DNA of 46,048 nucleotides from Bacillota bacterium (GTDB lineage: Bacteria > Bacillota > Limnochordia > Darwinibacteriales > DTU012), in the NCBI GenBank assembly GCA_012798795.1, contig JAAZMN010000131.1, positions 1-46,048 of the forward strand, written 5' to 3'. Below, in pieces: positions 1-25,905 of this stretch (position 1 is its first letter; the number at the start of each line of letters is the position of its first letter). The notes below the pieces were generated by a model. That model was not told the DNA's origin. It worked only from the letters and a program-made list of their open reading frames with translations, and did no database searches. A program made the translations under genes and the position numbers.

Positions 1-1041
1 GCAGAATTAACTCGATATATCGAAAGAATTGAACCCGACTATCAGGAATTTCTGCCGGAAATGAATTGGCAGGGTATTTTCAGACCAGGTAGGCTCAAGT
101 TCAGCTTCAGTGATTTACTCAAGAAGTTGTTACAATCATTGTTTAAAGAAGTACTGCTTAGTTCACACTTGATGCGTCAATTACTGGTAATCGCACTTCT
201 TTCGGCATTTTTTAATCGGCTGCAGTTATCATTGGAAAGTACAAGCATGATAAATGTAGCTTTTGCCGTCTGTTTCTTAATCGTTATTTTTGTCGGGCTG
301 CAAAGTTTTCATGCAGTTTGTACTATAGCTAGAAACAGCATTGACGAAATGGTTTCTTTTATGTATGCTTTACTACCTGTATTGTCAACACTGCTTGCTG
401 CAGTGGGAGGGGTTACCTCAGCAGCCATTTTTCATCCTGTTTTAATTATGGTTGTCAGTGGTGTGGCGTTTTTGATATCAACAGTATTGTTTCCAATGCT
501 GAATGTCAGTGCAATAATCGGATTGCTGAGCAATTTTGCTCAGGATTTTCCTTTATCCCGCCTTGACGGCCTAATTAAGCATCTATGTACTATGCTTTTA
601 TCGTTAGTATTTACAGTATTTATCGGTGTTGTAACGGTAAGAGGTGCACTAGCGCCTATTGCAGATGGAGTCGGGTTACGAGCGGCAAAGTTTCTTACCG
701 GCACTATTGTTCCTGTTATTGGGTCAATGTTTGCAAATGCTGTGGAAGTAGTGATTGGTGGTTCATTATTAATCAAGAATACCATCGGAGTTTTTGGCCT
801 GCTCATTATTTTCTTTTTTGCAGCATTACCTATTTTAAAAATTTGGGCAGTTGTATTGATCTATAAGGTCGTAGGTGCATTAATCGAACCGATTTGCGAT
901 AAACGCATCAGTGAAGCAATTTCAGGATTAGCAGGTTCGTTAACACTGATCATGGTGTCATTAGCTACAGTTGCACTTATGTTTTTCTTAGCCATTACAA
1001 TACTGGTAGGTTTCGGCAACCTTACAGCTGCAATGAGGTGA
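1..1041 (+). CDS. spoIIIAE: Stage III sporulation protein AE (SpoIIIAE), 5'-truncated by window edge
   Basis: The reading frame is open from nt 1, with no stop before the first ATG at 61. It is a polytopic membrane protein with the SpoIIIAE-type block GLRAAKFLTGTIVPVIGSMF...LLIKNTIGVFG. AF, AG and AH follow in canonical order. Confidence 0.85.
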   Translation, partial: AELTRYIERIEPDYQEFLPEMNWQGIFRPGRLKFSFSDLLKKLLQSLFKEVLLSSHLMRQLLVIALLSAFFNRLQLSLESTSMINVAFAVCFLIVIFVGLQSFHAVCTIARNSIDEMVSFMYALLPVLSTLLAAVGGVTSAAIFHPVLIMVVSGVAFLISTVLFPMLNVSAIIGLLSNFAQDFPLSRLDGLIKHLCTMLLSLVFTVFIGVVTVRGALAPIADGVGLRAAKFLTGTIVPVIGSMFANAVEVVIGGSLLIKNTIGVFGLLIIFFFAALPILKIWAVVLIYKVVGALIEPICDKRISEAISGLAGSLTLIMVSLATVALMFFLAITILVGFGNLTAAMR

Positions 1042-1045
1042 GAAA

Positions 1046-1573
1046 GTGATAGGATGGAGAAGTTGGCTTCGTATGCTGATTGGTTTAGTTTTAGTGATAG
1101 GTCTTTTTGATATGCTCTTACCTGAGACTGATCTAAAAAAACTTGTAAAACTTGTAATGGGTTTGGTAATAATGCTTGCTGTATTACAGCCGATTACAGC
1201 TCTTTTAAATGTAGGCTGGGATGGGTCCATTTCTATTGAAGCCACATTGTATGATGACGAAATTGATTGGGGTAAAGCCGGAGAAATGATTTATGATGCC
1301 GGCTCAAAACCAGTATTACAGTTCGTGACTAACCAGGCTGATCATCAAATGGAGGCACTGCTGATAGCCAATACAATGGTTGCAGATGCTAAAATTACAA
1401 CACACATATCTGAAGATGGCACTATTACAAAGGTAAATGCAGCTATAACACTTTGTTCAAGCAGAGAACACTTCCCTCAAGAAGAAATTGATGGACTTGA
1501 AGAACTGACTAGAAATATGATCGCTAGATATTTGCAGGTTTCACAAGCCATAATTTTGGTTGAATTTGCATAG
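1046..1573 (+). CDS. spoIIIAF: Stage III sporulation protein AF (SpoIIIAF)
   Basis: 175 aa with GTG start 4 nt after the spoIIIAE stop. The N-terminal two-TM region (LIGLVLVIGLFDMLLP...VKLVMGLVIMLAVLQPI) resembles SpoIIIAF, and the operon position fits. Confidence 0.75.
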   Translation: MIGWRSWLRMLIGLVLVIGLFDMLLPETDLKKLVKLVMGLVIMLAVLQPITALLNVGWDGSISIEATLYDDEIDWGKAGEMIYDAGSKPVLQFVTNQADHQMEALLIANTMVADAKITTHISEDGTITKVNAAITLCSSREHFPQEEIDGLEELTRNMIARYLQVSQAIILVEFA

Positions 1574-1590
1574 AGTTAGGAGGAAGGTGC

Positions 1591-2127
1591 ATGTTCAAAA
1601 AACTATCGACATCCCAGCGAAAGATGCTTAATTGGTTGGGTTTTGTAATTGTTGTTGGTATCGGATTTATGCTGATTCAACCTGCAAGACAGAATAAAAT
1701 TGATACAAATCTACCTTTAACCCAAACCACCCAGCTGTATGACAGGCAAATAAACGGGGCATATGATTATGAAGAAAGAACTCAATGCTGTTTAACTGAG
1801 ATATTAACACAAATCAAAGGAGTAGGTGAAGTAAAAGTATTTGTTACACTTGATCGTGGTTCCAGTGTAGTTTTAGCACAATCTGTTACAGAAGAAACAA
1901 AGAACAGCGGTGAATCGCGGATTTCAAAAGATCCGGTTATTTTACGGTCAGATGGGAATAAAGAAGCACCACTGATCATTGAAGAATACCAACCAGTAAT
2001 ACGGGGAGTTCTGGTGGTGGCTGCTGGAGCTGAGAATCCTGATATTCGCTATCAAATATTCAAAGCCGTTCAAGCAGCATTACATCTTCCTATGTATAGA
2101 ATTGAAGTATTACCAAAAGGAAATTAG
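1591..2127 (+). CDS. spoIIIAG: Stage III sporulation protein AG (SpoIIIAG)
   Basis: AGGAGG RBS upstream and an N-terminal TM. The C-terminal block VIRGVLVVAAGAENPDIRYQIFKAVQAALHLPMYRIEVLPKG is typical of SpoIIIAG. Confidence 0.8.
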   Translation: MFKKLSTSQRKMLNWLGFVIVVGIGFMLIQPARQNKIDTNLPLTQTTQLYDRQINGAYDYEERTQCCLTEILTQIKGVGEVKVFVTLDRGSSVVLAQSVTEETKNSGESRISKDPVILRSDGNKEAPLIIEEYQPVIRGVLVVAAGAENPDIRYQIFKAVQAALHLPMYRIEVLPKGN

Positions 2128-2142
2128 AAGAGGTGAGTATAA

Positions 2143-2748
2143 ATGTATTATGTGATTCACGGGCGTAGGACAGTGCTTTTGTTGGTTTTATTATTAGTAA
2201 TCGGGGTAACTTTTTGGTTCGGTTTTTGCTCAAATTCTGGAAATCCATCTGATGATTTAGAATTCGATACTGTTTATGGTGATGCAGATAACCTTGAGTT
2301 TGCGTCAGAACCGGTGGTGGAAGTATTGGCAGGTGGTGTCCAACGAACAGTCAGCGAGCTTGACCAAAATGTTATTGTATCAGTTGCATCTGTACCTACT
2401 AAGTTTGCTGAATACCGTATTGAAAGAGAAAAAGTAAGAAGCCGTCGCTTAGAGCTGTTAGAAAATACTATTAATGATGCATCATTATCCGAGCAGTACC
2501 GCCAAGAGCTGCAGGGAGAATTATTAAATCTCTTGGATAATGTGGCGAAAGAGACTGAAATTGAGAATCTATTAAAAGCCAATGGATACTTAGATGCGGT
2601 TATCTTGATGGAAAATGAGTCCGCTACAGTAGTAGTTCCAGTTTCGTTGACAAGGGAGGAGGCAATGGTTATCGGAGACCTAGTACATCGGATTACCGGA
2701 ATTCGCTTGGAACGAATAACAATAGTAGATGAATTGACTAGAAGCTGA
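2143..2748 (+). CDS. spoIIIAH: Stage III sporulation protein AH (SpoIIIAH)
   Basis: N-terminal TM, the FAEYRIEREKVRSR motif and a C-terminal YscJ/FliF-like domain (LLKANGYLDAVILMENESATVVV). It is the last gene of the spoIIIA operon. Confidence 0.75.
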   Translation: MYYVIHGRRTVLLLVLLLVIGVTFWFGFCSNSGNPSDDLEFDTVYGDADNLEFASEPVVEVLAGGVQRTVSELDQNVIVSVASVPTKFAEYRIEREKVRSRRLELLENTINDASLSEQYRQELQGELLNLLDNVAKETEIENLLKANGYLDAVILMENESATVVVPVSLTREEAMVIGDLVHRITGIRLERITIVDELTRS

Positions 2749-2749
2749 G

Positions 2750-2778
2750 GAAAGCCAAGGGTAATCCTTGGTTTTCTT
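2750..2778 (+). terminator. Hairpin after spoIIIAH (possible terminator or attenuator)
   Basis: GAAAGCCAAGG (2750-2760) pairs with CCTTGGTTTTC (2766-2776), 11 bp with one G-U and loop GTAAT. The T residues lie mostly inside the 3' arm, so termination strength is uncertain. Confidence 0.4.
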
Positions 2779-2889
2779 AACTGTTGGGCATGAAAAATGA
2801 TTAATGTGGAAAAGTATACCATTGAACAGGAGTATATTAGCTGTATGTCGAAAATAGACTCAGTTCCAGAAACATATGGGAGGGTTCAT

Positions 2890-3315
2890 ATGAATATAAA
2901 TGAGATAAAAGAGTTAATTAAATTATTTAATGAATACGACATAGCCGAACTCGAATTAGAAATGGAAGATATCAAGCTTAGACTTGTTAAAGATGACTTA
3001 GCCCAATCTAATCATATTTCTGTCGACTGTAATCAGCAGCTCAACACAGTAAAAGCGACAAAAGATGATAATGTTTTTGAGATGTGCTCACCTATGGTTG
3101 GAACTCTTTATCGTGCTCCGTCTCCTACAAGCGAACCCTTTGTCCATCAGGGATGTAGGATAAATGAAGGGCAGGTATTATGCATAATTGAAGCTATGAA
3201 GCTGATGAATGAAATTGAGTCGGAGGTTGAAGGTAAACTACTAAAAGTTTTAGTAGAAAACGGACAACCTGTAGAATACGGGCAGCCCCTATTTCTCATA
3301 GAGTTAGCTGATTAG
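2890..3315 (+). CDS. accB: Acetyl-CoA carboxylase biotin carboxyl carrier protein
   Basis: Biotinylation motif [10 protein letters not shown] is present. I chose ATG 2890, preceded by GGGAGG, rather than the 2797 ORF-track start because the extension has no RBS. Confidence 0.9.
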
Positions 3316-4676: not shown

Positions 4677-4731
4677 ATTGTAATAAGTTAGAGTGTTTGT
4701 TATAATACTACTATAAGGAGGTATGTGTACT

Positions 4732-5130
4732 ATGGCAGAAGAAGAGAGAATTAGTTTAGGAGAACTTAGGATCGCTAATGAAGTAGTAGGTATAATAGCA
4801 GGATTAGCAGCTACTGAAGTTGAAGGAGTTGCCGGGATGAGCGGCGGAATTGCCGGCGGTATTGCAGAGATGTTAGGCAGAAAAAATCTGGCTAAGGGTG
4901 TAAAAGTTGAAGTAGGCGAAGAGCAGGCTGCTCTCGATTTATATGTAATAGTCAATTATGGAGTGGCTATACAAGAGGTCGCCAAGAATATACAGCGTAA
5001 TGTGAAGCAAGCCATAGAAGGAATGACTGGTTTAGATGTGGTTGAAGTAAACATTCATGTTTTAGGAGTGCATTTCCCACAACAACAGGTTGAAGAACCG
5101 CAGGAAACGCCCCCTGTTCGGGTTAAGTAG
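4732..5130 (+). CDS. Asp23/Gls24-family alkaline shock protein
   Basis: IANEVVGIIAGLAATEVEGVAGM and the remaining sequence are typical of Asp23. The start was taken at ATG 4732, after an AAGGAGG RBS. Confidence 0.85.
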   Translation: MAEEERISLGELRIANEVVGIIAGLAATEVEGVAGMSGGIAGGIAEMLGRKNLAKGVKVEVGEEQAALDLYVIVNYGVAIQEVAKNIQRNVKQAIEGMTGLDVVEVNIHVLGVHFPQQQVEEPQETPPVRVK

Positions 5131-5658
5131 ATGGCTTTAGTTGATAGAATAATCATTGCTGTTGTTGCTGTCGTGTTAACTATTATTGGAGTATTTGCTG
5201 CTCTAACCACATGGGGCAGTAGTGTTTTGATAGATTGGCTGGTTTCACTGAAGTATGCAAAGCTTGATGGAATTCTGCTGATAATTATCTTACTGTTATT
5301 GGCAGCTTATTTGATTATGATGATCTTCAGCAGCTTTAAGTCTGAACGCCGTTCTATAGTTCGCAGTACGGAGTTGGGTGACATTCGTATCAATGCTCAG
5401 ACCATTATAGGTTTAGTAGATAAAGCAGTAAAAGAGATTGAAGGAATAAAGGATGTAGATGTTCGTTTGCATGAAGTAGAGCCTTTGAAAGTTGAAATTG
5501 GATTACAGTTGCTTCCGGACTATCATATTCCTCATTTAACAGAATCGATTCAACTTGAGATTAAGAATTATCTGCAGAATACAGTGGGCGTAGAAACTGA
5601 CGTGATTAATATATTGGTTAAAGGAGTTTTACCTGAACAGCGAATTCGAGTTCAGTAA
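5131..5658 (+). CDS. amaP: Alkaline shock response membrane anchor protein (AmaP-like)
   Basis: It starts immediately after the asp23 stop. Two N-terminal TM helices are followed by an Asp23-like soluble domain, which is the usual Asp23 partner architecture. Confidence 0.65.
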   Translation: MALVDRIIIAVVAVVLTIIGVFAALTTWGSSVLIDWLVSLKYAKLDGILLIIILLLLAAYLIMMIFSSFKSERRSIVRSTELGDIRINAQTIIGLVDKAVKEIEGIKDVDVRLHEVEPLKVEIGLQLLPDYHIPHLTESIQLEIKNYLQNTVGVETDVINILVKGVLPEQRIRVQ

Positions 5659-5660
5659 GC

Positions 5661-6101
5661 TTGATGTTTAGGGGTGAGGGGTATTTGAGTAGACGACTTG
5701 CTCGGCAAACAGCGTTAGAAATATTGTATCAAATAGATATTACCAAAAGTACTTTGGAATATGCAATTGAGAACACACCGGCCGAAACGCCTTTAGACTG
5801 CTCGGATCGGGAATTTGCTCACTCTTTAGTAACCGGAGTTATCGCTAGATTACCAGAGATTGACGGTATAATTGCTCAATTTGCGAAAGATTGGAAAGTC
5901 GAGCGGATGGCTTATATCGATCGTAATATTTTACGGTTAGCAACTTATGAATTAAAATACTTGGACGATGTGCCTATTAAAGTTAGTGTCAACGAAGCGG
6001 TTGAGTTAGCAAAAAAATTTAGTGATCAAAAAGCCGCAAAATTCATCAATGGAATATTAGGTACTGTGGTTGATTATGTTAGTGAGGGCGAAAATGAGTA
6101 A
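5661..6101 (+). CDS. nusB: Transcription antitermination factor NusB
   Basis: RLARQTALEILYQ..., ERMAYIDRNILRLATYEL and NEAVELAKKF...KFINGILG are NusB signatures. Confidence 0.9.
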   Translation: MMFRGEGYLSRRLARQTALEILYQIDITKSTLEYAIENTPAETPLDCSDREFAHSLVTGVIARLPEIDGIIAQFAKDWKVERMAYIDRNILRLATYELKYLDDVPIKVSVNEAVELAKKFSDQKAAKFINGILGTVVDYVSEGENE

Positions 6102-7074
6102 TGAGTATTTTTTGGGGGTTGATACTAGTAACTATACTACTTCGCTGGCTGTAGTGGACAAACAAGCGAAACTAACGGCGGAGAGTCGCAAGCTGCTGCC
6201 GGTAGAAAAGGGTAAAAGAGGGTTTCGTCAATCAGAAGCATTGTTTTGGCATGTGCAGAACCTACCTAATGCGGTTCAGGAGATTACCCAATTGCTCCCT
6301 GGTTTTCATCATCAGCTGAGAGCAGTTGCGGTATCAGTTAAACCGCGTCCTAGGGCGGATTCATACATGCCGGTTTTTTTGCCGGGCAAAGCATTAGCCC
6401 AGTCATTGGCAGCTCTGCTAGAAGTTCCATATTATGATCTGTCCCATCAAGAAAATCACATTTGGGCGGGATTGGTCGATGCTGGCGGGCCAAAATCAAA
6501 TCGGTTTATTGCCCTGCATTTGTCAGGTGGAACTAGTGAGATTTTAGACGTATATCTAAATAGAAAAGATTTTCATTTTAAGGTTGTTACTTTGGGTGGA
6601 ACTACCGATTTACATGCAGGACAATTCATTGATCGAGTGGGAGTTGCAATTGGTTTACCCTTTCCTGCCGGAACCCATTTAGAAAAACTTGCATTAGAAA
6701 GCAGAGCCGATCTGATTATTCCGTCTTTTCATCGAAATGGGGAGATTAGTTTTGCCGGTCCTGAGTCAGCGGCTATGCGTATGCTGGAAATTGAGAGTCA
6801 TGCTGATATTGCTCGTGCAGTTCTGTTGAACATTAGTCGTACAGTAACAAAATTAATTAATTGGGCTGCAGAGAAAACCGGTGTAAAACAAGTATTGCTA
6901 GTCGGTGGAGTCTGTGCAAACTTAATTATCAGACAAGAATTACAGCTGCGTTTACCAAATTTGGATTTATATTTTGCTGCACCCGGCCGCAGTGTAGATA
7001 ATGCATTTGGCGCAGCTTTATTTTGCGGATTATGCTATCGAGGGGAAAGCTTTTTTGGTAATTTTTTTGAGTAG
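6094..7074 (+). CDS. TsaD/Kae1-like (peptidase M22, ASKHA-fold) family protein, paralog type
   Basis: The N-terminus FLGVDTSNYTTSLAVV resembles the TsaD LGIETSCDET block. An H-x3-H pair (SHQENH) and the C-terminal VGGVCANLIIR block are present. ATG 6094 overlaps the nusB stop (6099-6101). Confidence 0.7.
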   Translation: MSNEYFLGVDTSNYTTSLAVVDKQAKLTAESRKLLPVEKGKRGFRQSEALFWHVQNLPNAVQEITQLLPGFHHQLRAVAVSVKPRPRADSYMPVFLPGKALAQSLAALLEVPYYDLSHQENHIWAGLVDAGGPKSNRFIALHLSGGTSEILDVYLNRKDFHFKVVTLGGTTDLHAGQFIDRVGVAIGLPFPAGTHLEKLALESRADLIIPSFHRNGEISFAGPESAAMRMLEIESHADIARAVLLNISRTVTKLINWAAEKTGVKQVLLVGGVCANLIIRQELQLRLPNLDLYFAAPGRSVDNAFGAALFCGLCYRGESFFGNFFE

Positions 7075-7368: not shown

Positions 7369-8592
7369 ATGCACCAAATGCATATCATCACTGTCAGCCA
7401 ATTAACCAGACAGATAAAAACTGTATTGGAACAGCCTCTGTTTCAACAACTGAAAGTTGAAGGAGAGATTTCAAATTTTAAACATCACAGTTCAGGACAT
7501 ATGTATTTTACCTTAAAAGATGAGCACAGCCGTATTAGAGCGGTAATGTTCCGTGGAAGAAATATTAGATTGGGGTTTGAACCAAAGAATGGAGATACAG
7601 TAGTAGCCATAGGTTCTCTTGGCGTTTACGAGCCTAATGGTGAGTATCAAATCTATGTCGAACAGATGCTTCCACAAGGAGTGGGCTTACTTCATATTAG
7701 ATTTGAAGAATTGAAACAAAAATTGGAGCAGGAAGGATTATTTGATCCAGAAAGGAAGCGGCCGCTGCCGTTTTTGCCGCGCAAGGTTGCAGTTATTACT
7801 TCTCCTACTAGTGCAGCAGTGCGCGATGTAATAAGTGTTATTAAAAGAAGATTTCCCGCAATGGAGCTCTTAATTGTACCGGCAGTCGTCCAAGGAGAAG
7901 ATGGACCGCAAAGTGTAACAGCTGCATTTGAACAAGTGAATTCTCAAAATGATGTGGATTTGGTAATTGTAACACGGGGCGGAGGTTCTATTGAAGAACT
8001 ATGGACATTTAATGATGAAACTGTAGCTAGAGCTATCTATAATTGTTCTGTTCCGGTGATCAGCGGTATCGGTCATGAAACCGATTTTACAATTGCAGAT
8101 TTTGCAGCCGATCATCGTGCAGCAACTCCGTCGGCAGCAGCTGAATTAGCTGTTCCAGATTACTATCATTTATCTTTATCTGTTAATAGGCTGAGCAGCA
8201 GATTATTATCTACTGTCAATAAATTAATTAATGAAAAACGGACAATTTTAGGTTATTTAACGAAGCGCAGTGTTTTGCTGCGTCCTAAAGTAAGAATAAA
8301 TCAGGAGAGACAGCGAGTTGATGAATCGCTGTCAAGAATTTGTTTAGTAGTCAATCATCAGTTAAATTTATTAAATCAGCGTTTATTAACTGCCACCGGA
8401 AAACTAGATAGCCTCAGTCCTCTGTCTACCTTATCAAGGGGTTATGCAGTTTGTCAAAAGCCAGACAAAACCGTTGTGACCGATCCTAATCAAGTTAAAA
8501 TCGGTGAAGATGTTGTTGTGCGGGTGAAATCCGGCCGATTATGGTGTCAAGTAAAGAAAGGAGAACAGATCAAATATGAGCGACGATCTTAA
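7369..8592 (+). CDS. xseA: Exodeoxyribonuclease VII large subunit
   Basis: 407 aa with an N-terminal OB fold (VSQLTRQIKTVLE...GEISNFKHHSSGHMYFTLKD). The catalytic core contains RGGGSIEELWTFNDE and GIGHETDFTIADF. Confidence 0.9.
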   Translation: MHQMHIITVSQLTRQIKTVLEQPLFQQLKVEGEISNFKHHSSGHMYFTLKDEHSRIRAVMFRGRNIRLGFEPKNGDTVVAIGSLGVYEPNGEYQIYVEQMLPQGVGLLHIRFEELKQKLEQEGLFDPERKRPLPFLPRKVAVITSPTSAAVRDVISVIKRRFPAMELLIVPAVVQGEDGPQSVTAAFEQVNSQNDVDLVIVTRGGGSIEELWTFNDETVARAIYNCSVPVISGIGHETDFTIADFAADHRAATPSAAAELAVPDYYHLSLSVNRLSSRLLSTVNKLINEKRTILGYLTKRSVLLRPKVRINQERQRVDESLSRICLVVNHQLNLLNQRLLTATGKLDSLSPLSTLSRGYAVCQKPDKTVVTDPNQVKIGEDVVVRVKSGRLWCQVKKGEQIKYERRS

Positions 8593-8819: not shown

Positions 8820-9704
8820 ATGAATCTAGAAAAGTATCTTAAAGAGAAGGCTGAGATTATCGAAAGAGCATTGGTAGATAGATTACCCAGTGAAAATACA
8901 GTTCCTCATGTGATTCATCAGGCCATGCGTTATTCCTGTTTGGGCGGGGGTAAACGCCTGCGTGCTATTTTAGCTTTAGAAGCCTGCAGCGCAGTGGGGG
9001 GGAATCCTGAAACTGTCCTGGATTTTGCTTGTGCAATCGAAATGATTCATGCATACTCGCTAATTCATGATGATCTTCCAGCCATGGATGATGACGATTA
9101 CCGCCGCGGTAAATTAACGAATCATAAAGTTTATGGAGAAGGGATTGCCGTATTAGCCGGCGATGCTTTATTAACTCATGCTTTTGAAATTTTAACTTAC
9201 ATGAGCAAGTATTTAGACGCTGAAATGGTAGTACAGATAATTAAAGAAGTAAGTGAAGCTTGTGGGTCTCAGGGTTTAATAGGGGGACAAGTAGTCGATC
9301 TAAAATCCGAAGGCGAAAATATTGATCTTAATACATTAGAATATATCTATCAAAATAAAACCGGGAAATTGATTTTGGTAGCTTTACGGGGAGGTGCTAT
9401 CATCGGCGGAGCAACTGCTCAGCAATTAGCAGCCGTTACTTTATATGGCGAGAACTTTGGATTAGCGTTTCAGATAACTGATGATATCCTCGATGTTGTC
9501 GGTGATACAAGTAAGTTAGGTAAAGAAGTCGGAGCTGATTTACGACGCCAAAAATCAACATACCCTAGTTTATTTGGTTTGACCAAAGCCAGAGAAATTG
9601 CTAAAAACTGTATCAGCCAATGTGAAAAAGCTTTAGTCGTTCTACCCAAACGGAATGATTATTTGCATGCATTAGCTAGGTTTGTGTTGGAACGGGAGTA
9701 TTAG
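8820..9704 (+). CDS. ispA: Farnesyl diphosphate synthase (polyprenyl synthetase)
   Basis: The first Asp-rich motif (LIHDDLPAMDDDDYRRG) and the second (ITDDILD) are both present. The start is ATG 8820, since the 8730 extension overlaps xseB and has no support. Confidence 0.9.
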   Translation: MNLEKYLKEKAEIIERALVDRLPSENTVPHVIHQAMRYSCLGGGKRLRAILALEACSAVGGNPETVLDFACAIEMIHAYSLIHDDLPAMDDDDYRRGKLTNHKVYGEGIAVLAGDALLTHAFEILTYMSKYLDAEMVVQIIKEVSEACGSQGLIGGQVVDLKSEGENIDLNTLEYIYQNKTGKLILVALRGGAIIGGATAQQLAAVTLYGENFGLAFQITDDILDVVGDTSKLGKEVGADLRRQKSTYPSLFGLTKAREIAKNCISQCEKALVVLPKRNDYLHALARFVLEREY

Positions 9705-9709
9705 ATTTA

Positions 9710-9738
9710 TTGCTGATTATTTATTGATATGATATAAT
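9710..9738 (+). promoter_or_regulatory. Putative sigma-A promoter with extended -10, directly after the ispA stop
   Basis: TTGCTG (9710-9715), a 17-nt spacer, then TGaTATAAT (TG 9730-9731, TATAAT 9733-9738). The predicted start lies about 10 nt upstream of the closing helix of the large RNA. Confidence 0.45.
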
Positions 9739-9752
9739 AAGTATTGCTTAAG

Positions 9753-10364
9753 GATGAATGACGCAGTATTCTAGTCATTGATTTCAGTTCAAAGACGGGC
9801 CTAAAAATCCGTTGAGGGCATAACGATGAAGTCCCTGGTGGTGGCCTTCTACGCCCAGTCGAGGGTTGCTAGTGGGGGTTAAGATGGTAGGGCGATCTAC
9901 AATGGCATGTAGGCGTTGACCCTTTCATCATGGAGACCTAAGTTTGTGGATGTGCGGGAGACTGTACATTTATGGCTTAGGAGAGAACCTGCACTCGGTA
10001 CGTAAACATAGTATTATTTGCACTAATGTGCGGGGTGCAGAGTAGCCTGCCTTGAGCGGTGTAGGAGGGATAGCTATTTTTCCATTAGGCTGCCAAAGGC
10101 CAAGGCACCTATTGCTTGAAACTTACACTGCAAAAGAGGCTAGAATTGAATAATCAATGTTGAGGAAAACTCCTAGACTGTTTCCTTTGCGAAAGTGGGC
10201 TGAGGATTACGGTGTGGACTAAGTGGTAATCTAGCCTTGCTGATGGTGACACAGCGAAAAGATCGGAAAAGGGAAACCGCCGACTACGGTGACGAGTTGG
10301 ATGATCTTTGGGAAAACCTGCTAGACCTAAGTCACAATCTTTACTCACTCCGCTGTCATTCATC
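9753..10364 (+). ncRNA. ole: OLE (ornate, large, extremophilic) RNA, about 612 nt
   Basis: The 685-nt gap has no credible plus-strand ORF. A 10-bp closing helix pairs GATGAATGAC (9753-9762) with GTCATTCATC (10355-10364). Several nested helices are listed in findings. The segment looks more G+C-rich than its flanks. The locus ispA-[RNA]-membrane protein-dxs matches the published OLE context. Confidence 0.8.
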
Positions 10365-10389
10365 TACATATTTATAGGGAAAGGGTCTT

Positions 10390-10974
10390 ATGAAAAACAT
10401 TAGGCACAGTCTATTTATAGGTTTAATTACATTTTTTATTTCGGTAATCATTAACCTTAGTAGTTCTGCAATTTTGGCCGTATCTCCCGTTACTGTCAGT
10501 TTTATACTGCTGTTTTTTATTGTGTTATTAGGGATAGTTTTTGACATTATCGGAACTGCAGCAGCAGCAGGTACTGAAGCACCCTTCCATGCTATGGCTT
10601 CGGATCGGATTGCCGGAGCCAAACAGAGTATCTGGTTAGTGCGTAATGCGGATAAGGTAGCTACATTTTCTAACGATGTTGTTGGAGATATTGCCGGTAC
10701 AATCAGCGGTGCCATCGGTGCATCCATCATTTTTCATTTCACCCTTGGAGGTCCAAGAATTAACGCAGATGTAATTAATACATTTTTAATTGGATTTATT
10801 GCGGCAGTAACAGTAGCGGGAAAAGCAATAGGGAAAAGTGCTGCAATTTCTCGTTCTACAGAGATACTGTATTTAGCTGGTAGAGTTCTTTATAATATAG
10901 AGAAATTAGGAATAGATATCACGGGAAATACAAAGGATAAACGGAAATTTAATAATGAAAAGAAAAGAAATTAA
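10390..10974 (+). CDS. oapA: OLE-associated protein A-like small membrane protein
   Basis: 194 aa with about four TM helices, a conserved-looking loop (APFHAMASDRIAGAKQS...FSNDVVGDIAGTISGA) and a Lys/Arg-rich C-terminal tail (KDKRKFNNEKKRN). It begins 25 nt after the RNA closing helix with no terminator between them, in the position of oapA between OLE and dxs. Confidence 0.75.
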   Translation: MKNIRHSLFIGLITFFISVIINLSSSAILAVSPVTVSFILLFFIVLLGIVFDIIGTAAAAGTEAPFHAMASDRIAGAKQSIWLVRNADKVATFSNDVVGDIAGTISGAIGASIIFHFTLGGPRINADVINTFLIGFIAAVTVAGKAIGKSAAISRSTEILYLAGRVLYNIEKLGIDITGNTKDKRKFNNEKKRN

Positions 10975-16828: not shown

Positions 16829-18136
16829 GTGAAAAAGTGGCATTATTGGTTGTTAATTTTACCTGCGGTTTTAGTAATAATGTTAGCGGTCTCGCCTGTC
16901 TTGGCTTTATGGGCTGGAATTCCCGGAGAAATTCGGTTGTTTCCTGGAACAGAGTTTTCCCTGTCAATCCAATTGCCCTTTCGTTTGATTGACGGAAATG
17001 GATTGGATGTGACTGGTCCAAAAGGACAATTTTCTTTAATTCCTGAACAGATTGGCAAGCATCATTTTGAAGTTAAATTATTTGGCTTTATTCCTGTTCG
17101 TCAAATGATTGTCCATGTAGTACCAGAGATTAGAGTTTATCCGGGCGGTCAATCCATAGGGGTGATGGTAAATCCGATCGGATTAGTAATAAGCAGAATT
17201 GTTCCTGTGCGCGGATTGGATGGGCATGAATATTACCCGGCAAGGGATGCAGGTATACAACCTGGAGATTTAATTGTTTCCATCGGTAATCGGAAAGTCA
17301 CTCGTCCTGAGCAAGTTGGCCAGTTTGTTAATGAATTAGCCACAAAATCAAGTTGTATTGATATTGTGCTATACCGTAACGAACGATATATTCATACTTC
17401 TATTATTCCGATACTATCAATGCAAGATGATTTTAATGGCATTCAACGTCAAGTTTATTTGTTAGGGATTTTTTTGGAAGATCCTGCTTCAGGAGTAGGG
17501 ACATTGACTTTCTATGATATTTCAGGAAGATATGGTGCGTTAGGTCATACGGTTACTGACGGATTGGGCCGCAGTGTAGAAATAACAGATGGAAATATAG
17601 TTAATGCAAGTATAGATCGGATTAAACAGGGATTAAGGGGATTACCCGGTGAAAAACTTGGTGTATTCGAGATTGATCAAAGTATTGTCGGAACAATTGA
17701 TAAAAATACCAGGTTCGGTATTTTTGGAAACTTAATTCAGCAGTTGAGTAATGCTTATTTTCCCACTCCCATTCCAATTGCATTATCCCATGAAGTAGAA
17801 GTCGGGCCTGTAAAAATATACACTGTTGTTGAAGGAGAACAAATTAAGGAATTTGATGCTGAGATTACTAAGGTCGCACTACAGACACATCCGGACGATA
17901 AAGGTTTAGTTATTCGCATTACAGATCCGGTTTTACTGATGAAAACCGGTGGTATAATTCAAGGGATGAGTGGAAGTCCCATTGTTCAAAATGGTAAATT
18001 AGTCGGAGCGATAACACATGTATTCATTAATGATCCTCGTATGGGTTATGGAAGTTTCATTGAATGGATGATTTATGAAGCAGGTTTGCAGTATGACGAA
18101 AAAACCGGCAGTAGAGTATTAGCTCGTGCAAGTTAG
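16829..18136 (+). CDS. spoIVB: SpoIVB signalling serine peptidase (S55)
   Basis: GTG start after GAGGGGAG, an N-terminal TM and a PDZ region (GIQPGDLIVSIGNRKV). The S55 domain contains GTLTFYD...YGALGH and the catalytic GMSGSPI. Confidence 0.9.
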   Translation: MKKWHYWLLILPAVLVIMLAVSPVLALWAGIPGEIRLFPGTEFSLSIQLPFRLIDGNGLDVTGPKGQFSLIPEQIGKHHFEVKLFGFIPVRQMIVHVVPEIRVYPGGQSIGVMVNPIGLVISRIVPVRGLDGHEYYPARDAGIQPGDLIVSIGNRKVTRPEQVGQFVNELATKSSCIDIVLYRNERYIHTSIIPILSMQDDFNGIQRQVYLLGIFLEDPASGVGTLTFYDISGRYGALGHTVTDGLGRSVEITDGNIVNASIDRIKQGLRGLPGEKLGVFEIDQSIVGTIDKNTRFGIFGNLIQQLSNAYFPTPIPIALSHEVEVGPVKIYTVVEGEQIKEFDAEITKVALQTHPDDKGLVIRITDPVLLMKTGGIIQGMSGSPIVQNGKLVGAITHVFINDPRMGYGSFIEWMIYEAGLQYDEKTGSRVLARAS

Positions 18137-18169
18137 ATTTAGTCGGATTGTGCTTAGGAGGCGACTATA

Positions 18170-18919
18170 ATGATCAATATAATACTTGGCGATGATAATA
18201 TAACATATACCAGTGATATTGTAACAAATCTCAACAAACAGACAGATATTAATCTCAAAGGATTCGCTAATAATGTCGAGGATTTTATGGGAAAAGTAGA
18301 ACAAGATCCACCGGAAATAGCGGTATTGGACTTTATGGACCCAATTGAAAAAGGATTAAGACTTATAGACCGTATTCTCAGAGAATATCAGCTTAGCGTT
18401 ATTGTGATTTCAGATGTTGATGATGATAATTTCGTTGCTGCACTTCGGGATATTGGAGTAGCTTATTATCTTATGAAACCATTTAGTTGGGAAACTTTGG
18501 TGCAGCGGATAAAATATGTACATGAATATCATGAAAATATGTTTAATCTGTTCTATGTTCATGATCGACGGTTAATTCAGCAGTTTTTAATTGATTATTT
18601 CTCTGCATTAGGTATTCCTCCATATCTAAAGGGGCATCGATATTTGTTAGATGCTGTTATGTTGGTTAGTCAGGATAATTCGTGGTTAAACGGTATAACC
18701 AAAAGGCTGTATCCTGCAGTCGCACGATGTAATAGAACGTCAGCCAGTCATGTTGAACGTACGATACGTTATGCAATTGATACAGCTTGGTCAAAGGGAG
18801 ATTTTGCCCAATTACAGCAGCTGTTTCCTTATACCATTGATCCAGAAAAAGGCAAACCAACTAATTCAGCGTTTATTGCCAAAATGGCAGATATTATTAA
18901 TTTTCATTTTAAGTATTAA
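18170..18919 (+). CDS. spo0A: Sporulation master regulator Spo0A (divergent)
   Basis: The receiver domain has DD (8-9), a phospho-acceptor Asp in AVLDFMDP and Lys in YLMKPF. The Spo0A-specific C-terminal domain contains GIPPYLKGHRYLLDAV, ITKRLYPAVARCNRTSASHVERTIRYAIDTAW and KPTNSAFIAKMAD. Confidence 0.88.
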   Translation: MINIILGDDNITYTSDIVTNLNKQTDINLKGFANNVEDFMGKVEQDPPEIAVLDFMDPIEKGLRLIDRILREYQLSVIVISDVDDDNFVAALRDIGVAYYLMKPFSWETLVQRIKYVHEYHENMFNLFYVHDRRLIQQFLIDYFSALGIPPYLKGHRYLLDAVMLVSQDNSWLNGITKRLYPAVARCNRTSASHVERTIRYAIDTAWSKGDFAQLQQLFPYTIDPEKGKPTNSAFIAKMADIINFHFKY

Positions 18920-18953
18920 ATGATTAAATTTGCAGGTAAATATACATATTAGT

Positions 18954-18990
18954 AAGGACGAAGACAAAATGTTTTCGTCCTTTGTCATTG
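18954..18990 (+). terminator. Hairpin terminator after spo0A
   Basis: AAGGACGAA (18954-18962) pairs with TTCGTCCTT (18974-18982), 9 bp with an 11-nt loop. The trailing T tract is short (TTTGT). Confidence 0.5.
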
Positions 18991-19005
18991 TTAAGAGGTG
19001 TTATT

Positions 19006-20127
19006 ATGTATCAAGGGATAGTAAGACTAGGAACTAAAACTAAAGATTTAGCAAAGAGACTCAAACCCGGGGAAATTGCTTTAATCGATCATCAAGATCT
19101 AGATGCAATGGGAGCACTTGGATTAGCAGAAACCGGAATTGAGGTAGTACTGAATGCTGCAGATTCCATTACAGGTCGCTATCCAAATCTTGGTCCTAAA
19201 TTGTTACTAGAAAGAAAAATTAAGGTCATTGATCAGTTGGGGCAAGATGTTTTTGCTGAGGTTAAAGATGGCGAACAGCTGCGAATTGTCGAAAACAGCA
19301 TATACTTAAATGATAATTGTATAGCCGCAGGGCGACTGCTAGATCAAAATTTTGTTTTGACAGCTATGGAACAGGCTAAAGCAAACATTGATAATGAAAT
19401 TGATAAATTTGTGGATAATACCATAGAATACATGCAGAAAGAAAAGGATTTGTGGTTAACTGAATTTAGGATACCAAAAATTAAAACAGCTATAGCTGAC
19501 AGACATGTGGTAGTTGTTGTACGGGGAATAAACTATCAGGAGGATCTTAGTGTAATAGGTTCATATATTGAAGAAATGACCCCGGTATTAATTGGAGTGG
19601 ACGGAGGAGCAGATGCTCTAATAGAATTCAAACACAAACCTGATATCATTATCGGCGATATGGATAGTATAACAGATCAAGCACTAAAAGTTGGTGCAGA
19701 AATACTAGTCCATGCTTATCCCGACGGCCGCTGTCCCGGTGCCAAACGATTATCTGAACTAGGTGTTAGATATAAAATTTTTCCTGCTCCGGGTACAAGT
19801 GAAGATATTGCACTGCTTCTAGCTTATGAATTGGGAGCACAGCTAATTGTAGCAGTTGGACTTCATTCAAATCTTATAGACTTTCTGGAAAAAGGCAGGC
19901 CGGGAATGGCATCAACATTCTTGACTCGCATGAAAATAGGTTCAATTCTAGTTGATGCTAAAGGAGTAAGTCAGCTGTATACTGGGAAATCGGGGCTGCT
20001 GCACTTACCATTATTAATTGCTGCATTAATTCCAATTATTTTAATAATTATGCTGGCAGCGCCTTGGCGTGGTCTAATTAGGCTTTTATGGCTGCAGATT
20101 AGGCTGTTTATAGGAGGAATACTATAA
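19006..20127 (+). CDS. steA: SteA-family protein (putative cytokinetic-ring-associated, thiamine pyrophosphokinase-like domain)
   Basis: The N-terminus, VRLGTKTKDLAKRLKPGEIALIDHQDLD...NAADSITGRYPNLGP, matches the SteA family. There is a central TPK-like GDMDS motif and a C-terminal TM. ATG 19006 follows AGAGGTG. Confidence 0.75.
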   Translation: MYQGIVRLGTKTKDLAKRLKPGEIALIDHQDLDAMGALGLAETGIEVVLNAADSITGRYPNLGPKLLLERKIKVIDQLGQDVFAEVKDGEQLRIVENSIYLNDNCIAAGRLLDQNFVLTAMEQAKANIDNEIDKFVDNTIEYMQKEKDLWLTEFRIPKIKTAIADRHVVVVVRGINYQEDLSVIGSYIEEMTPVLIGVDGGADALIEFKHKPDIIIGDMDSITDQALKVGAEILVHAYPDGRCPGAKRLSELGVRYKIFPAPGTSEDIALLLAYELGAQLIVAVGLHSNLIDFLEKGRPGMASTFLTRMKIGSILVDAKGVSQLYTGKSGLLHLPLLIAALIPIILIIMLAAPWRGLIRLLWLQIRLFIGGIL

Positions 20128-20128
20128 T

Positions 20129-20845
20129 ATGCATATCGGATTTAGATACCATATTGCTTCATTGGTCGCTGTTTTTTTCAGCCTTTTTCTCGGAATTTTG
20201 GTAGGCAGCATTCTATTTCAGGATGATTTATTAATTCAAGAACAGGATATTATAATCGGTGAATTAGAAACTCGCTTTGAGGAATTGGAATTACTGATTT
20301 ATACAATGCAGGGTAATTTAAACAAAAAAAATGAAAAAGAACAGATGCTAACAATGGGTTGGGATCAAATTCGCAGTGTTTTTATTGCTGACAGGCTAAC
20401 CGAGCATGATGTAATTTTTTATAAAAGTAATGATTCATATAATATTAAAAGGCTCGTCACTTTAGTTGAAGAAGCGGGGGCTAGTGTTCTTGGGTGTTTT
20501 AACTGGCCGCAGGAATATGATCAATTAAAAGTACAGATCAGTAAATTAAGATTAAATGAAAAGCATGAACAGATTGTAATTATTTGGGCAGAGGATTCGT
20601 TGATTGATATCGCTTTACAAGGAATTGACTATTTTAAGGAACTTGGTTGGAAAATAAGTCTGCTTCAGCCATTTTTAAGCGGTGTTTCAATGCAGAACCT
20701 GGCTTCAGAAGCACTGATAGTCAATAATGCCGATACGTTTTTAGGAGAACTAGCGTTAATTCAAGGGCTTAGTGGAAATTTAAGTGGAATTTATGGTTAT
20801 AAAAACAATGCAGTTAATCTATTACCCGTATTGGATATGGAGTAG
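20129..20845 (+). CDS. MctB/DUF3186-like ('copper transporter' family) membrane-anchored protein
   Basis: The N-terminus FRYHIASLVAVFFSLFLGILVGS is the characteristic family signature. It starts 1 nt after the steA stop. Confidence 0.6.
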   Translation: MHIGFRYHIASLVAVFFSLFLGILVGSILFQDDLLIQEQDIIIGELETRFEELELLIYTMQGNLNKKNEKEQMLTMGWDQIRSVFIADRLTEHDVIFYKSNDSYNIKRLVTLVEEAGASVLGCFNWPQEYDQLKVQISKLRLNEKHEQIVIIWAEDSLIDIALQGIDYFKELGWKISLLQPFLSGVSMQNLASEALIVNNADTFLGELALIQGLSGNLSGIYGYKNNAVNLLPVLDME

Positions 20846-20854
20846 CTGAAAAAC

Positions 20855-21538
20855 ATGAAAATTACAGCATTAGTTCCAGCTTATAACGAAGCTGAAAATA
20901 TAGCAGACACTATTCTGGCTGTTACTGGAATTGACCAGATTAATCAAATAGTGGTTATTGATGACGGTTCAACAGATAATACTGCCAAAATCGCTGCCGA
21001 ATATCCGGTTGAATTAATTACTTTAGTAGAAAACCAAGGTAAAGGACAAGCCTTAAACGCAGGATGGCGCAGTTATTCTGCTGACATTTATTTGTTGATT
21101 GATGCGGATTTAAGAGCAAGTGCAATTTATGCTAAAGAGCTGCTGCCGCCGATTATCTCTGGTAAATACGATATGAGCATCGCCAATTTTTCTTCAGATC
21201 AAGCAGCTGAAAATCAGGGTAAAATGGGTTTCGGGATTGCAAAAACAACGGCAAAGTGGGGAATTAAACTATTGACGGGACACAGATCTAACAGCCCATT
21301 GTCAGGGCAGCGGGCAGTTGTCAGTGAAGTGCTTCAAAGCTGTGGTGGTTTTGCTGAAGATTTTGGCTGTGAGGTTGCATTAACCATTAAAGCACTGAAA
21401 CAGGGATATCGTTTAATCGAAGTGGATTTACCAATGACCCATCGAGCTACCGGAAGAGATCTAGCCGGATTTAAACACCGCGGCAGACAGTTTTTTATGG
21501 TCATTAAACAGTTATATAAGGCTTGGAGGAATTACTAG
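20855..21538 (+). CDS. Family 2 glycosyltransferase
   Basis: GT-A fold: ALVPAYNEAENI, VIDDGSTDNT and a DAD (DxD) motif at LIDADL. Confidence 0.8.
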   Translation: MKITALVPAYNEAENIADTILAVTGIDQINQIVVIDDGSTDNTAKIAAEYPVELITLVENQGKGQALNAGWRSYSADIYLLIDADLRASAIYAKELLPPIISGKYDMSIANFSSDQAAENQGKMGFGIAKTTAKWGIKLLTGHRSNSPLSGQRAVVSEVLQSCGGFAEDFGCEVALTIKALKQGYRLIEVDLPMTHRATGRDLAGFKHRGRQFFMVIKQLYKAWRNY

Positions 21539-21539
21539 A

Positions 21540-22346: not shown

Positions 22347-22407
22347 AGGCAATAATTTGCAGGTAAAAAGTTTACGCCTGTAGAATTATAAAATCACCCC
22401 CACCTTA

Positions 22408-25089: not shown

Positions 25090-25119
25090 GAATATAAATA
25101 CATGAGGAGGGGATTTCAC

Positions 25120-25899: not shown

Positions 25900-25905
25900 G
25901 AAATA

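Follow-up and report, generated by a model that had tools for sequence, protein, structure and literature searches.

A full-length OLE RNA gene upstream of oapA in an endospore-forming bacterium of the Bacillota

Positions 9742-10375 of the window (the whole analysed stretch of 46,048 nucleotides) hold, on the plus strand, a full-length OLE RNA gene, a typical representative of a family that is already well catalogued. The 194-aa protein encoded downstream is OapA. Taken as a whole, the best explanation is almost certainly the OLE gene of an uncultured endospore-forming member of the Bacillota, to which we add some putative structural parts and a proposed mechanism. The copy is of an already known kind, canonical in sequence, structure and context, and nothing counts against its identification.

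The OLE RNA gene and its surroundings

The features of the gap and of the gene that follows it are:

9710-9738, plus strand: candidate promoter-like element, read from the sequence
9742-10375, plus strand: OLE RNA gene, full-length type (Rfam RF01071), from the covariance-model match, consensus pairs and folding energy
10376-10389, plus strand: spacer AGGGAAAGGGUCUU with the oapA ribosome-binding site, read from the sequence
10390-10974, plus strand: oapA, encoding the 194-aa OapA, predicted membrane partner of OLE RNA, from synteny, motif and model

An earlier note on this DNA had proposed OLE RNA for the gap and had named a search with the Rfam OLE model as the way to check it. That model matches the plus strand from end to end (model positions 1-616 of 616) with 467.8 bits, far above the gathering score of 50, and an E-value of 2.6e-134; 18 other OLE loci, scored identically, reach 436-559 bits, a range that includes this value. 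When the consensus pairs are projected onto the window, 141 of 153 are canonical, and the minimum free energy of the segment is -222.3 kcal/mol (z = -6.5). The RNA measures 612 nt from P1 to P1, or 634 nt as the covariance-model match. The gap is exactly 685 nt long (9705-10389), as had been claimed, with ispA ending at 9704 and the next coding sequence starting at 10390. The RNA does fill it, but the gap lies between ispA and oapA, not between ispA and dxs as the title of the note had it. Independent metagenome gene calls leave the same gap empty in near-identical contigs. The impression that the segment is richer in G+C was also right: the OLE segment has 46.2% and the window 39.1% (with an sd of 2.2% among 634-nt windows), and no other stretch of that length is richer.

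It is hardly conceivable that the gap is instead a small protein gene, a chance G+C-rich structured spacer or an RNA of a different family. Two open reading frames are listed in it, one of 46 aa with a TTG start on the plus strand (10237-10377) and one of 69 aa on the minus strand (10154-10363), and these are what favours a protein-coding reading. Each plus frame of the gap contains 12-14 stops, and no coding signal was found there. The minus-strand region is open in only 9 of 111 relatives. The plus-strand region is unconserved, changes length out of phase among relatives and has no Shine-Dalgarno motif upstream that could be seen on reading the sequence; in-phase opening of the small frames is not kept among relatives (segment length modulo 3, 48/43/20). 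Against both coding and a chance spacer, substitutions in the helices are compensatory; against another RNA family, OLE is the sole Rfam match in the gap at gathering thresholds. The protein-coding reading is rejected on the stops, the unconserved frames, the compensatory changes and the OLE match. The note's statement that the interval has no plus-strand frame with a ribosome-binding site agrees with this reading, but its statement that only minus-strand frames are listed there overlooks the 46-aa frame.

The gene order xseA-xseB-ispA-OLE-oapA-dxs-tlyA-nadK-argR-recN, as given in the note, was verified gene by gene with NCBIfam matches (xseA, xseB, FPP synthase, dxs, tlyA, nadK, argR and recN), and OLE is flanked by these genes in other species too. 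OLE and oapA are thereby part of a cluster with isoprenoid, DNA-repair and translation genes. Upstream, the window also has a gene of the Asp23/YqhY family; yqhY is among the OLE-linked genes (PMC12265935). Neither oapB nor oapC was identified among those window ORFs that were scanned. The window also encodes spoIIIAE-AH, spoIVB, spo0A, dpaAB and sleB/pdaB, and because of these sporulation genes we take the host to be an endospore-forming member of the Bacillota.

How might the RNA be transcribed? Upstream of it we read an extended -10 element, TGaTATAAT (9730-9738), and a weak -35 element, TTGCTG (9710-9715), with a 17-nt spacer, which would imply a transcription start near 9745, a few nt before P1. 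In 84 of 95 relatives, and in 22 of 95 shuffled controls, a TATAAT-like -10 element precedes the conserved CAGUAUUC by 15-40 nt. A consensus promoter scan upstream of OLE gave no plus-strand match, because the -35 element fits just three of six positions. The B. halodurans OLE is transcribed from a proximal promoter, with 5' ends that map close to where P1 begins (PMC3413148).

The arrangement at the other end might suggest that OLE is mainly a cis-acting leader, a giant 5' UTR by which oapA-dxs and the genes downstream would be controlled in their translation or stability. The terminator scan of the window found no terminator between OLE and oapA, the oapA start codon follows the end of the Rfam match by 14 nt with the ribosome-binding site immediately after OLE, and in H. 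halodurans the genes of the cluster are transcribed together (PMC12265935). Nevertheless we regard a leader function as very improbable. The B. halodurans RNA is a single, discrete and exceptionally stable species with levels near those of RNase P and SRP RNA, and in that organism the phenotypes are rescued when ole and oapA are supplied from a remote place in the chromosome (both PMC3413148). The proteins OapA, OapB, OapC and bS21 bind OLE, which also assembles into defined dimers (PMC12265935, PMC12286853). The ribosome-binding site of oapA is outside P1, and no expression platform that would sequester it was seen in the window.

The fold of the RNA

Labels for the stems are our assignments from text descriptions in PMC3413148 and PMC12265935. 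The elements, all on the plus strand, are:

9753-9762, plus strand: P1 5' strand GAUGAAUGAC, pairing with 10355-10364, extendable by G9752-U10365
9763-9776, plus strand: invariant 5' block GCAGUAUUCUAGUC, 92-100% identical in 111 sequences
9777-9790, plus strand: 5' strands of P3 (9777-9782) and P3.1 (9783-9790), in duplex with 10143-10158
9794-9813, plus strand: P4 hairpin with A-rich loop CCUAAAAA (9800-9807), from model match and consensus pairs
9814-9831, plus strand: joining block GAGGGCAUAACGAUGAAG, P4a / J4a-5 region, mostly 92-99% conserved
9832-9878, plus strand: P5/P5.1, a long hairpin with loop GCCCA (9853-9857), 18 of 20 pairs canonical
9883-9929, plus strand: P6/P6.1 with hairpin CUACA/UGUAG (9897-9912) and loop AUGGCA, 5 of 5 pairs, covarying
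9937-9981, plus strand: P7 hairpin, 16 of 17 pairs canonical, its base being the CCTAAG/CTTAGG of the earlier note
9989-10040, plus strand: P8 hairpin with a 22-nt lineage-specific insertion at its tip (about 10003-10024)
10049-10140, plus strand: P9 arm, shorter than consensus, with a poor model score
10143-10158, plus strand: 3' strands of P3.1 (10143-10150) and P3 (10153-10158), with a UA bulge at 10151-10152
10162-10181, plus strand: invariant block GAGGAAAACUCCUAGACUGU, comprising the P10 hairpin GAG/CUC (10162-10172) and a putative P2 3' strand (10173-10181)
10194-10354, plus strand: domain 2 core, from model match, consensus pairs and covariation
10355-10364, plus strand: P1 3' strand GUCAUUCAUC, partner of 9753-9762, from covariation

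For comparison we collected at least 120 other OLE loci from genome contigs, using the block GAGGAAAACUCCUAGACUGU as an anchor pattern; the nearest relative among the matches listed (120 species) has about 69% nucleotide identity. Covariation was read from 111 OLE sequences in a MAFFT alignment that is not structure-aware, as counts without R-scape statistics. In this set the consensus pairs are 87.1% paired against 40-45% in slid registers, and double changes occur at 128 pairs, so that the compensatory changes which the note expected in relatives are indeed present in the helices.

The outermost helix that had been picked out by eye, GATGAATGAC at 9753-9762 with GTCATTCATC at 10355-10364, enclosing 612 nt, is real and corresponds to the published P1 stem. 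A perfect 10-bp inverted repeat is not rare in about 700 nt (by our estimate chance would give about 0.2). Its coordinates proved correct and it covaries strongly: over the 111 sequences P1 is 85.6% paired, against 32-56% in slid registers and 67% in column shuffles (maximum 69.8%), and 9 of its 10 pairs have compensatory changes, for example 9757-10360 (GC60 AU35 GU6 UA5) and 9762-10355 (UA67 CG22 UG16).

Inside P1, the 5' strand of P2 would be 9763-9767 plus the CUAG palindrome at 9771-9774, paired with 10173-10181; a second CUAG palindrome, at 10173-10176, falls within this putative 3' strand. The pairing was read by eye, since every base is invariant and covariation cannot reach it. A contact of OapA has been mapped to a palindrome in or near P2 (PMC12265935).

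P3 and P3.1 form a 14-bp duplex that also appears in the minimum free energy fold. Across 104 OLE sequences, cognate P3/P3.1 duplexes average -14.45 kcal/mol and non-cognate partners -7.08 kcal/mol. About 14 bp are said to be needed for spanning a lipid bilayer, by a calculation of the discoverers, and the duplex of the window copy has just this length. The P3 stem has been proposed to cross the membrane (PMC12265935). Both P1 and P3/P3.1 clearly covary in the 111 sequences and both are absent from the Rfam consensus structure (for P1, there is no annotation in SS_cons); structure projections based on Rfam therefore under-report the fold.

The four published dimerisation elements are all present at sequence level. 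The A-rich loop of P4, CCUAAAAA, with 7 of 8 positions 100% conserved, forms dimer contact 1 in the structures solved by cryo-EM, and the loops L5.1 (GCCCA, 98-100% conserved) and L6.1 (AUGGCA, about 100%) are kissing-loop partners within the dimer (PMC12286853, PMC12265935). The fourth is a GGCC palindrome at 10098-10101 in the P9 terminal loop AAAGGCCAA, which serves as a symmetric kissing loop of the dimer (PMC12286853). The P9 loop was examined in the window copy only, because MAFFT misaligns this arm of variable length; by eye, the tip would re-pair as UAGG[C]UGCC / GGCACCUA. A second OapA site and a k-turn bound by OapC have been placed at the P4a / J4a-5 region (PMC12265935, PMC12286853).

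About 25% of the positions of OLE RNAs are more than 97% conserved, in near-invariant blocks. The window copy keeps GCAGUAUUCUAGUC, CCUAAAAA, CGAUGAAG, GCCCA, AUGGCA, GAGGAAAACUCCUAGACUGU, GGGAAACC and GACCUAAG unchanged, and of these GCAGUAUUCUAGUC, GAGGAAAACUCCUAGACUGU, GGGAAACC and GACCUAAG are long invariant single-stranded blocks, 92-100% conserved. Such blocks would fit a catalytic core. OLE could then be a ribozyme, whose size, roughly 25% near-invariant nucleotides and ornate fold would serve catalysis while the OapA tether only holds the catalyst in place. Published suggestions include a c-di-AMP synthase activity. According to PMC12265935 and PMC11332333, catalysis was the original proposal of the discoverers. 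We consider it unlikely, though less so than a leader function: almost 20 years have gone by without any activity being found, several invariant loops are already explained as dimer contacts (PMC12286853), and the discoverers now argue that the role of a membrane-integral, dimeric, multi-protein scaffold could alone explain size and conservation (PMC12265935).

Domain 2 consists of nested long-range helices (10194-10204/10344-10354, 10213-10217/10332-10336 and 10230-10235/10320-10325) enclosing two hairpins, at 10237-10257 and at 10258-10309, the latter with a GUGA-tipped inner stem. Pairs 10232-10323 (CG73 UA14 UG12 AU10) and 10233-10322 (AU89 GC21) illustrate its covariation. The OapB site has been mapped to P12.2/P13 in this domain (PMC12265935).

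Of the eight shorter helices that the note had paired by eye, four belong to the consensus: CTACA/TGTAG with 5 of 5 pairs, CTGCACTC/GGGTGCAG with 7 of 8, AAAGATC/GATCTTT with 7 of 7 and strong covariation, and CCTAAG/CTTAGG with 5 of 6, although the 5' arm of the last lies at 9937-9942 and not at 9927-9932. Three others were rejected as consensus features. AGGA/TCCT is out of register with the consensus GAG/CUC and also clashes with the putative P2; ACCG/CGGT is out of register with the consensus stem. The hairpin GGCT..GATTAC/GTAATC.AGCC is unsupported, its arms having distant covarying partners: AGCC (10233-10236) covaries with 10320-10323, and GGCU (10198-10201) is part of the helix to 10344-10354. 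The hairpin GCAC-TAAT-GTGC sits in the 22-nt insertion of P8, which is absent in most relatives.

A part of the rejected hairpin could still have another meaning. GGAUUA (10204-10209) and UAAUC (10227-10231) are near-invariant, lie in internal loops of domain 2 in the covariation-supported structure, and are complementary in about 95-100% of the 111 sequences at four core positions; domain 2 is also the part of OLE without resolution in any cryo-EM map. Pairing could occur in another conformation of the RNA, or from one RNA of a dimer to the other. We give this little credence. GAUUAC/GUAAUC shows no coupled change in the 111 sequences, and the two variable positions are uncoupled (10209 x 10227, AU51 AC29 GU18 GC13, matches independence).

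OapA and a proposed mechanism

Of 120 other OLE loci among the matches listed, 113 have an OapA homologue immediately after OLE, in the same orientation, and the window protein is about 42% identical to OapA of sampled OLE loci. It has the DxxxD motif distinctive of OapA (PMC11332333) as D96-V-V-G-D100, both aspartates being invariant in 64 homologues, as well as conserved lysines K145 and K149 and, from the translation, a Lys/Arg-rich C-terminal tail. An AF2 model (pLDDT 85.6) is all-helical with long helices at 2-31, 34-60, 87-120 and 126-154. The top six PDB matches of this model in Foldseek are all transmembrane domains of CNNM/CorB/CorC proteins (7M1T, 7M1U, 7CFG and 7CFF among them), with probabilities of 0.87-1.0, E-values of 0.014-1.7 and TM-scores of 0.46-0.62, so the predicted link to CNNM is weak in statistical terms for the window protein. 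Some OapA homologues are labelled PF01595 or 'CorB'; the window protein matched no Pfam or NCBIfam model, and a profile of the OapA alignment against PDB sequences gave only noise (E 0.24 or worse). A relationship of OapA to CNNM/MpfA has been described (PMC11332333, PMC12265935). Binding of OapA to OLE RNA in a 2:1 ratio and the need for it in membrane localisation were shown only in H. halodurans, and transporter activity is only proposed (PMC12265935).

A mechanism has been established for no OLE RNA, and what follows is a proposal drawn from work on other species. Most OLE RNA would start at its own extended -10 promoter, and some would come from a long xseA...recN transcript; the RNA would build up in a highly stable form of about 610-630 nt. 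Dimers would form through RNA-RNA contacts; cryo-EM structures of RNA-only OLE homodimers exist (PMC12286853, PMC12265935). OapA would bind the RNA near P2 and near P4a, at the CUAG palindromes, and so hold it at, possibly through, the cell membrane. Most likely, the OLE dimer would be a regulatory and scaffolding subunit of OapA, a CNNM-like divalent-cation transporter, replacing the cytoplasmic CBS and CorC domains of the all-protein relatives (MpfA/CorB). In this way it may couple Mg2+ handling and responses to stress (alcohols, cold, poor carbon sources) to OapB, OapC and bS21, its further partners (PMC12265935, PMC12286853). The OLE phenotypes, the membrane localisation and an anticorrelation with MpfA have been reported (PMC12265935, PMC11332333).

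The background given in the earlier note (an RNA of about 600 nt from anaerobic or extremophilic Bacillota, a membrane RNP, a link to alcohols, cold and Mg2+, an unknown activity) agrees with PMC12265935 and PMC3413148. The note made no mention of the cryo-EM dimers, the transmembrane model of P3, OapB, OapC and bS21, or the relation of OapA to CNNM/MpfA.

Comparison with known systems

What is gained for annotation is that a 685-nt gap left blank by protein gene callers is now filled and that the hypothetical protein downstream can be named OapA. With over 2,800 OLE RNAs already catalogued, a single further instance contributes little scientifically. Among bacterial RNAs whose biochemical mechanism is not known, the class remains one of the largest; the interest lies in the family and not in the window copy.

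With the OLE RNAs of Halalkalibacterium (Bacillus) halodurans and Clostridium acetobutylicum (the latter known from cryo-EM) the window copy shares the full-length model match and the invariant blocks. It also has P1, P3/P3.1, P4-P10 and the nested helices of domain 2 in common with known OLE RNAs, as well as the four dimerisation elements, the proximal -10 element and the flanking genes. The differences are lineage-level variation only. Compared with the consensus, there is the 22-nt insertion at the tip of P8, and the P9 arm is shorter, with six consensus pairs lost. P1 has 10-11 bp where the family mode is 7 bp, and P3 with P3.1 has 14 bp against a 'typical 12' (PMC12265935).

Like other OapA proteins, the window protein has about 190 aa, four long hydrophobic helices, the invariant DxxxD and a CNNM-like predicted fold. 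Among PDB chains, the transmembrane fold of its model fits best the CNNM (DUF21) domain of MpfA/CorB/CorC. Loss of either system, OLE/OapA or MpfA/CorB/CorC, is reported in the literature to cause Mg2+ sensitivity. OapA differs from CNNM/MpfA in having neither the CBS pair nor the CorC/HlyC domain and in working with a 600-nt RNA; it has four transmembrane helices instead of three, and the DxxxD motif that CNNM domains lack (PMC11332333). Because it has 194 aa, too few to accommodate CBS or CorC domains, and no Pfam match, we regard the window protein as a structural relative and not as a member of CNNM. Relative to MpfA/CorB/CorC, OapA is at most a functional analogue.

GOLLD, ROOL and the raiA motif are, like OLE, large non-coding RNAs with extensive structure and no known mechanism; none of them was found in the window at Rfam gathering thresholds, and OLE is unrelated to them in sequence and fold. 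GOLLD and ROOL are likewise RNA-only homo-oligomers, forming nanocages rather than membrane-associated dimers.

The RNA between ispA and oapA

The window holds a structurally intact, full-length gene for OLE RNA, a large structured bacterial RNA, with its dimerisation elements, a promoter-like element and a co-oriented oapA. An earlier note had proposed OLE for the gap between ispA and the next coding sequence, and a covariance-model search to check it. That search (Rfam release 15, gathering score for OLE 50) gave a full-length match to OLE (RF01071) at 9742-10375 on the plus strand, with 467.8 bits, E 2.6e-134 and model positions 1-616 of 616; OLE was the sole Rfam family matched in the gap. 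The re-identification was correct: the element lies in its canonical context and belongs to an RNA class already known from over 2,800 catalogued Bacillota genomes (PMC11332333).

The gap measures exactly 685 nt, from the end of ispA (farnesyl diphosphate synthase) at 9704 to the start of the next coding sequence at 10390, and is equally void of genes in the gene calls of four near-identical metagenome contigs. It was rightly read as non-coding, with 12-14 stops per plus-strand frame and small ORFs that are not phase-conserved in relatives. Minus-strand ORFs had been listed there and one does exist, but a plus-strand ORF of 46 aa (10237-10377) had been overlooked; in-phase conservation in relatives is absent both for it and for the 69-aa minus-strand ORF. 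The impression of high G+C also holds, at 46.2% for the RNA against 39.1% for the whole window (sd 2.2% in 634-nt windows), which makes this the G+C-richest 634-nt segment of the stretch. The folding energy of the RNA strand is -222.3 kcal/mol, against a shuffle mean of -187.4 (z = -6.5).

Relatives were gathered by searching for the invariant block GNGGAAANCNCCTAGACTGT in a single genome of each species, which gave at least 120 loci; among the 120 listed, 118 have a blastn match to the window RNA. All 18 sampled listed loci score 436-559 bits for OLE, and the score of the window copy is ordinary for the family. The nearest relative among the listed loci is only about 69% identical (blastn), and the exact OapA (OLE-associated protein A) occurs on metagenome contigs only, where the RNA is 99.7% identical to that of the window; hence the host is an uncultured Bacillota. 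Contigs labelled Actinomycetota, Varibaculum and Deltaproteobacteria (loci L073, L074, L099 and L102) bear full-length OLE as well (436-532 bits), consistent with a published remark that the few matches outside Bacillota probably reflect mis-binning or horizontal transfer.

Helices and dimer contacts

Structural elements of the window copy
9777-9782/10153-10158 and 9783-9790/10143-10150 (+), P3/P3.1, stem of 14 bp, UA bulge
9763-9767/10177-10181 (GCAGU with ACUGU) and 9771-9774/10173-10176 (CUAG with CUAG) (+), candidate P2, paired by eye
9800-9807 (+), A-rich P4 loop CCUAAAAA, dimer contact
9853-9857 (+), P5.1 loop GCCCA, dimer contact
P6.1 loop AUGGCA (+), dimer contact
10098-10101 (+), palindrome GGCC in the P9 terminal loop, dimer contact

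The long-range closing helix that had been spotted by eye, GATGAATGAC at 9753-9762 with GTCATTCATC at 10355-10364 (612 nt enclosed), is placed correctly. Helices were tested by pair counts on a MAFFT alignment of the window and 110 other OLE sequences. Pairing in the closing helix reaches 85.6% over these 111 sequences, whereas slid registers give 32-56% and shuffled columns 67% (at most 69.8%), and 9 of the 10 pairs of the helix show compensatory changes (for example 9757-10360, GC60/AU35/GU6/UA5, and 9762-10355, UA67/CG22/UG16). On this covariation the helix, which is the P1 stem of the literature, is clearly real, although the Rfam structure line marks its positions unpaired. The P3/P3.1 stem, for which Rfam has no annotation, is likewise conserved by covariation, because cognate strands pair better than non-cognate partners (mean -14.45 against -7.08 kcal/mol, 104 OLE sequences). 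Both stems covary clearly in the 111 sequences and are left unpaired in the RF01071 SS_cons line; structures projected from the Rfam model therefore lose about 24 base pairs. The covariation found despite this omission is the one mildly useful by-product of the analysis. Every base of candidate P2 is invariant, which puts it beyond the reach of covariation.

After projection of the Rfam consensus onto the window, 141 of 153 pairs are canonical; a deletion in the P9 arm costs six further consensus pairs. Ordinary lineage variation accounts for the insertion in P8, the shorter P9 and the slightly long P1 and P3. All four dimer-contact elements seen in cryo-EM structures (PMC12286853, PMC12265935) are kept. 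The OLE region differs from its metagenome copies (L121-L123) solely at 10082 and 10108, both within the P9 arm, where the window has C and the contigs A; by our own pairing of the P9 tip, the change at 10108 would disrupt a G-C pair, uncompensated.

Other helices paired by eye fared unevenly. CTACA/TGTAG (5 of 5 pairs), CTGCACTC/GGGTGCAG (7 of 8) and AAAGATC/GATCTTT (7 of 7, with as many as six types of pair at a position) are consensus helices. So is CCTAAG/CTTAGG (5 of 6), with its 5' arm at 9937-9942 rather than 9927-9932. AGGA/TCCT and ACCG/CGGT were not confirmed: for the first the consensus register is instead GAG/CUC (10162-10164/10170-10172), and in place of the second the consensus has a longer stem with a CG-GUGA-CG tip. 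GCAC-TAAT-GTGC sits within 22 inserted nt that are missing in most relatives. The hairpin GGCT..GATTAC/GTAATC.AGCC was not confirmed either, its arms being engaged elsewhere: AGCC 10233-10236 covaries with 10320-10323 (10233-10322, for instance, is AU89/GC21), and GGCU belongs to an 11-bp helix with 10344-10354. The GAUUAC/GUAAUC arms have a single informative position, without coupled change; they are complementary simply because both are nearly invariant.

Neighbouring genes and host

Genes and other features of the window
4723-5130 (+), Asp23/YqhY-family gene (PF03780, 132 bits), upstream of OLE and downstream of accB-accC
5131-5658 (+), 175-aa ORF without family match, after the Asp23/YqhY-family gene
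6070-7074 (+), 334-aa ORF between nusB and xseA
7369-8592, xseA (NCBIfam)
8820-9704, FPP synthase/ispA (NCBIfam)
44791-45003 (+), T-box leader (RF00230, 137.7 bits; gathering score 93)
about 45040 to the window end, ORF truncated by the edge, directly downstream of the T-box leader

The expected gene order is borne out by NCBIfam: xseA, xseB, ispA, OLE, a 194-aa protein, dxs, tlyA, nadK, argR and recN. Among the 120 loci listed, the same genes flank OLE in varying numbers (ispA 89, dxs 81, xseA 75, tlyA 73, xseB 65, argR 42, recN 40, nadK 35). Pfam and NCBIfam searches found no match for the 194-aa protein. In 113 of these loci the gene that follows OLE immediately, in the same orientation, encodes a homologue (about 42% identity); a DxxxD motif (D96, D100), invariant in 64 homologues, is of the kind described as distinctive of OapA (PMC11332333); and the AlphaFold2 model, with a pLDDT of 85.6, shows four long helices. 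On these grounds the protein is OapA. The gene yqhY is listed in the literature among those often linked to ole.

The genes spoIIIAE-AH, spoIVB, spo0A, dpaAB, sleB and pdaB mark the host as an endospore former. Sporulation genes crowd 61-3315 and 16829-36255 (spoIIIAE, AF, AG and AH, spoIVB, spo0A, a sleB-like gene, dpaA, dpaB and two pdaB/ylxY-like deacetylases), a density that fits the published correlation of ole with such genes. The window also has a dapB/asd/aspartate kinase/dapA cluster, steA, a DinG/YoaA-like helicase and RNase J1. The N-terminus of the ORF at about 45040 (…HDGPPYANG…) looks like isoleucyl-tRNA synthetase, and with the leader it forms an ordinary T-box/aaRS pair. The 334-aa ORF matches the TsaD/Kae1 family weakly (PF00814, 75 bits; NCBIfam TsaD, 110 bits, below the cutoff of 208) and could be a divergent Kae1-like or ASKHA-fold protein.

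Possible function and comparison with other species

In other species OLE RNA is abundant and very stable, forms RNA-only homodimers, is bound and taken to the membrane by OapA, and has OapB, OapC and bS21 as further partners; loss of the complex makes cells sensitive to cold, to short-chain alcohols, to raised Mg2+ and to poor carbon sources, and OLE is anticorrelated with MpfA-type Mg2+ transporters (PMC3413148, PMC12265935, PMC12286853, PMC11332333). The mechanism that we tentatively prefer, with not quite an even chance of being right, is that the RNA dimer would serve OapA, a CNNM-like cation transporter, as a regulatory and scaffolding module. It might take the place of the CBS/CorC domains found in all-protein relatives, and integrate stress signals. 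That OLE is instead a ribozyme seems unlikely to us. It has also been proposed that P3/P3.1 crosses the bilayer, for which the authors of that proposal calculate that about 14 bp are needed; in length the window's stem would be compatible with this, as 14 bp is the calculated requirement.

An extended -10 element (TGaTATAAT, 9730-9738, plus strand) stands about 14 nt upstream of P1, and 84 of 95 relatives have a TATAAT-like hexamer at the corresponding place, compared with 22 of 95 shuffled controls. No terminator-like site was found between OLE and oapA, whose ribosome-binding site starts immediately after the RNA. A purely cis-regulatory role for OLE is very improbable: in B. halodurans rescue works from a distant locus and the RNA is stable, and both findings contradict such a role. 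In that species a proximal promoter has been shown to drive OLE (PMC3413148), and the promoter-like -10 element of the window matches it.
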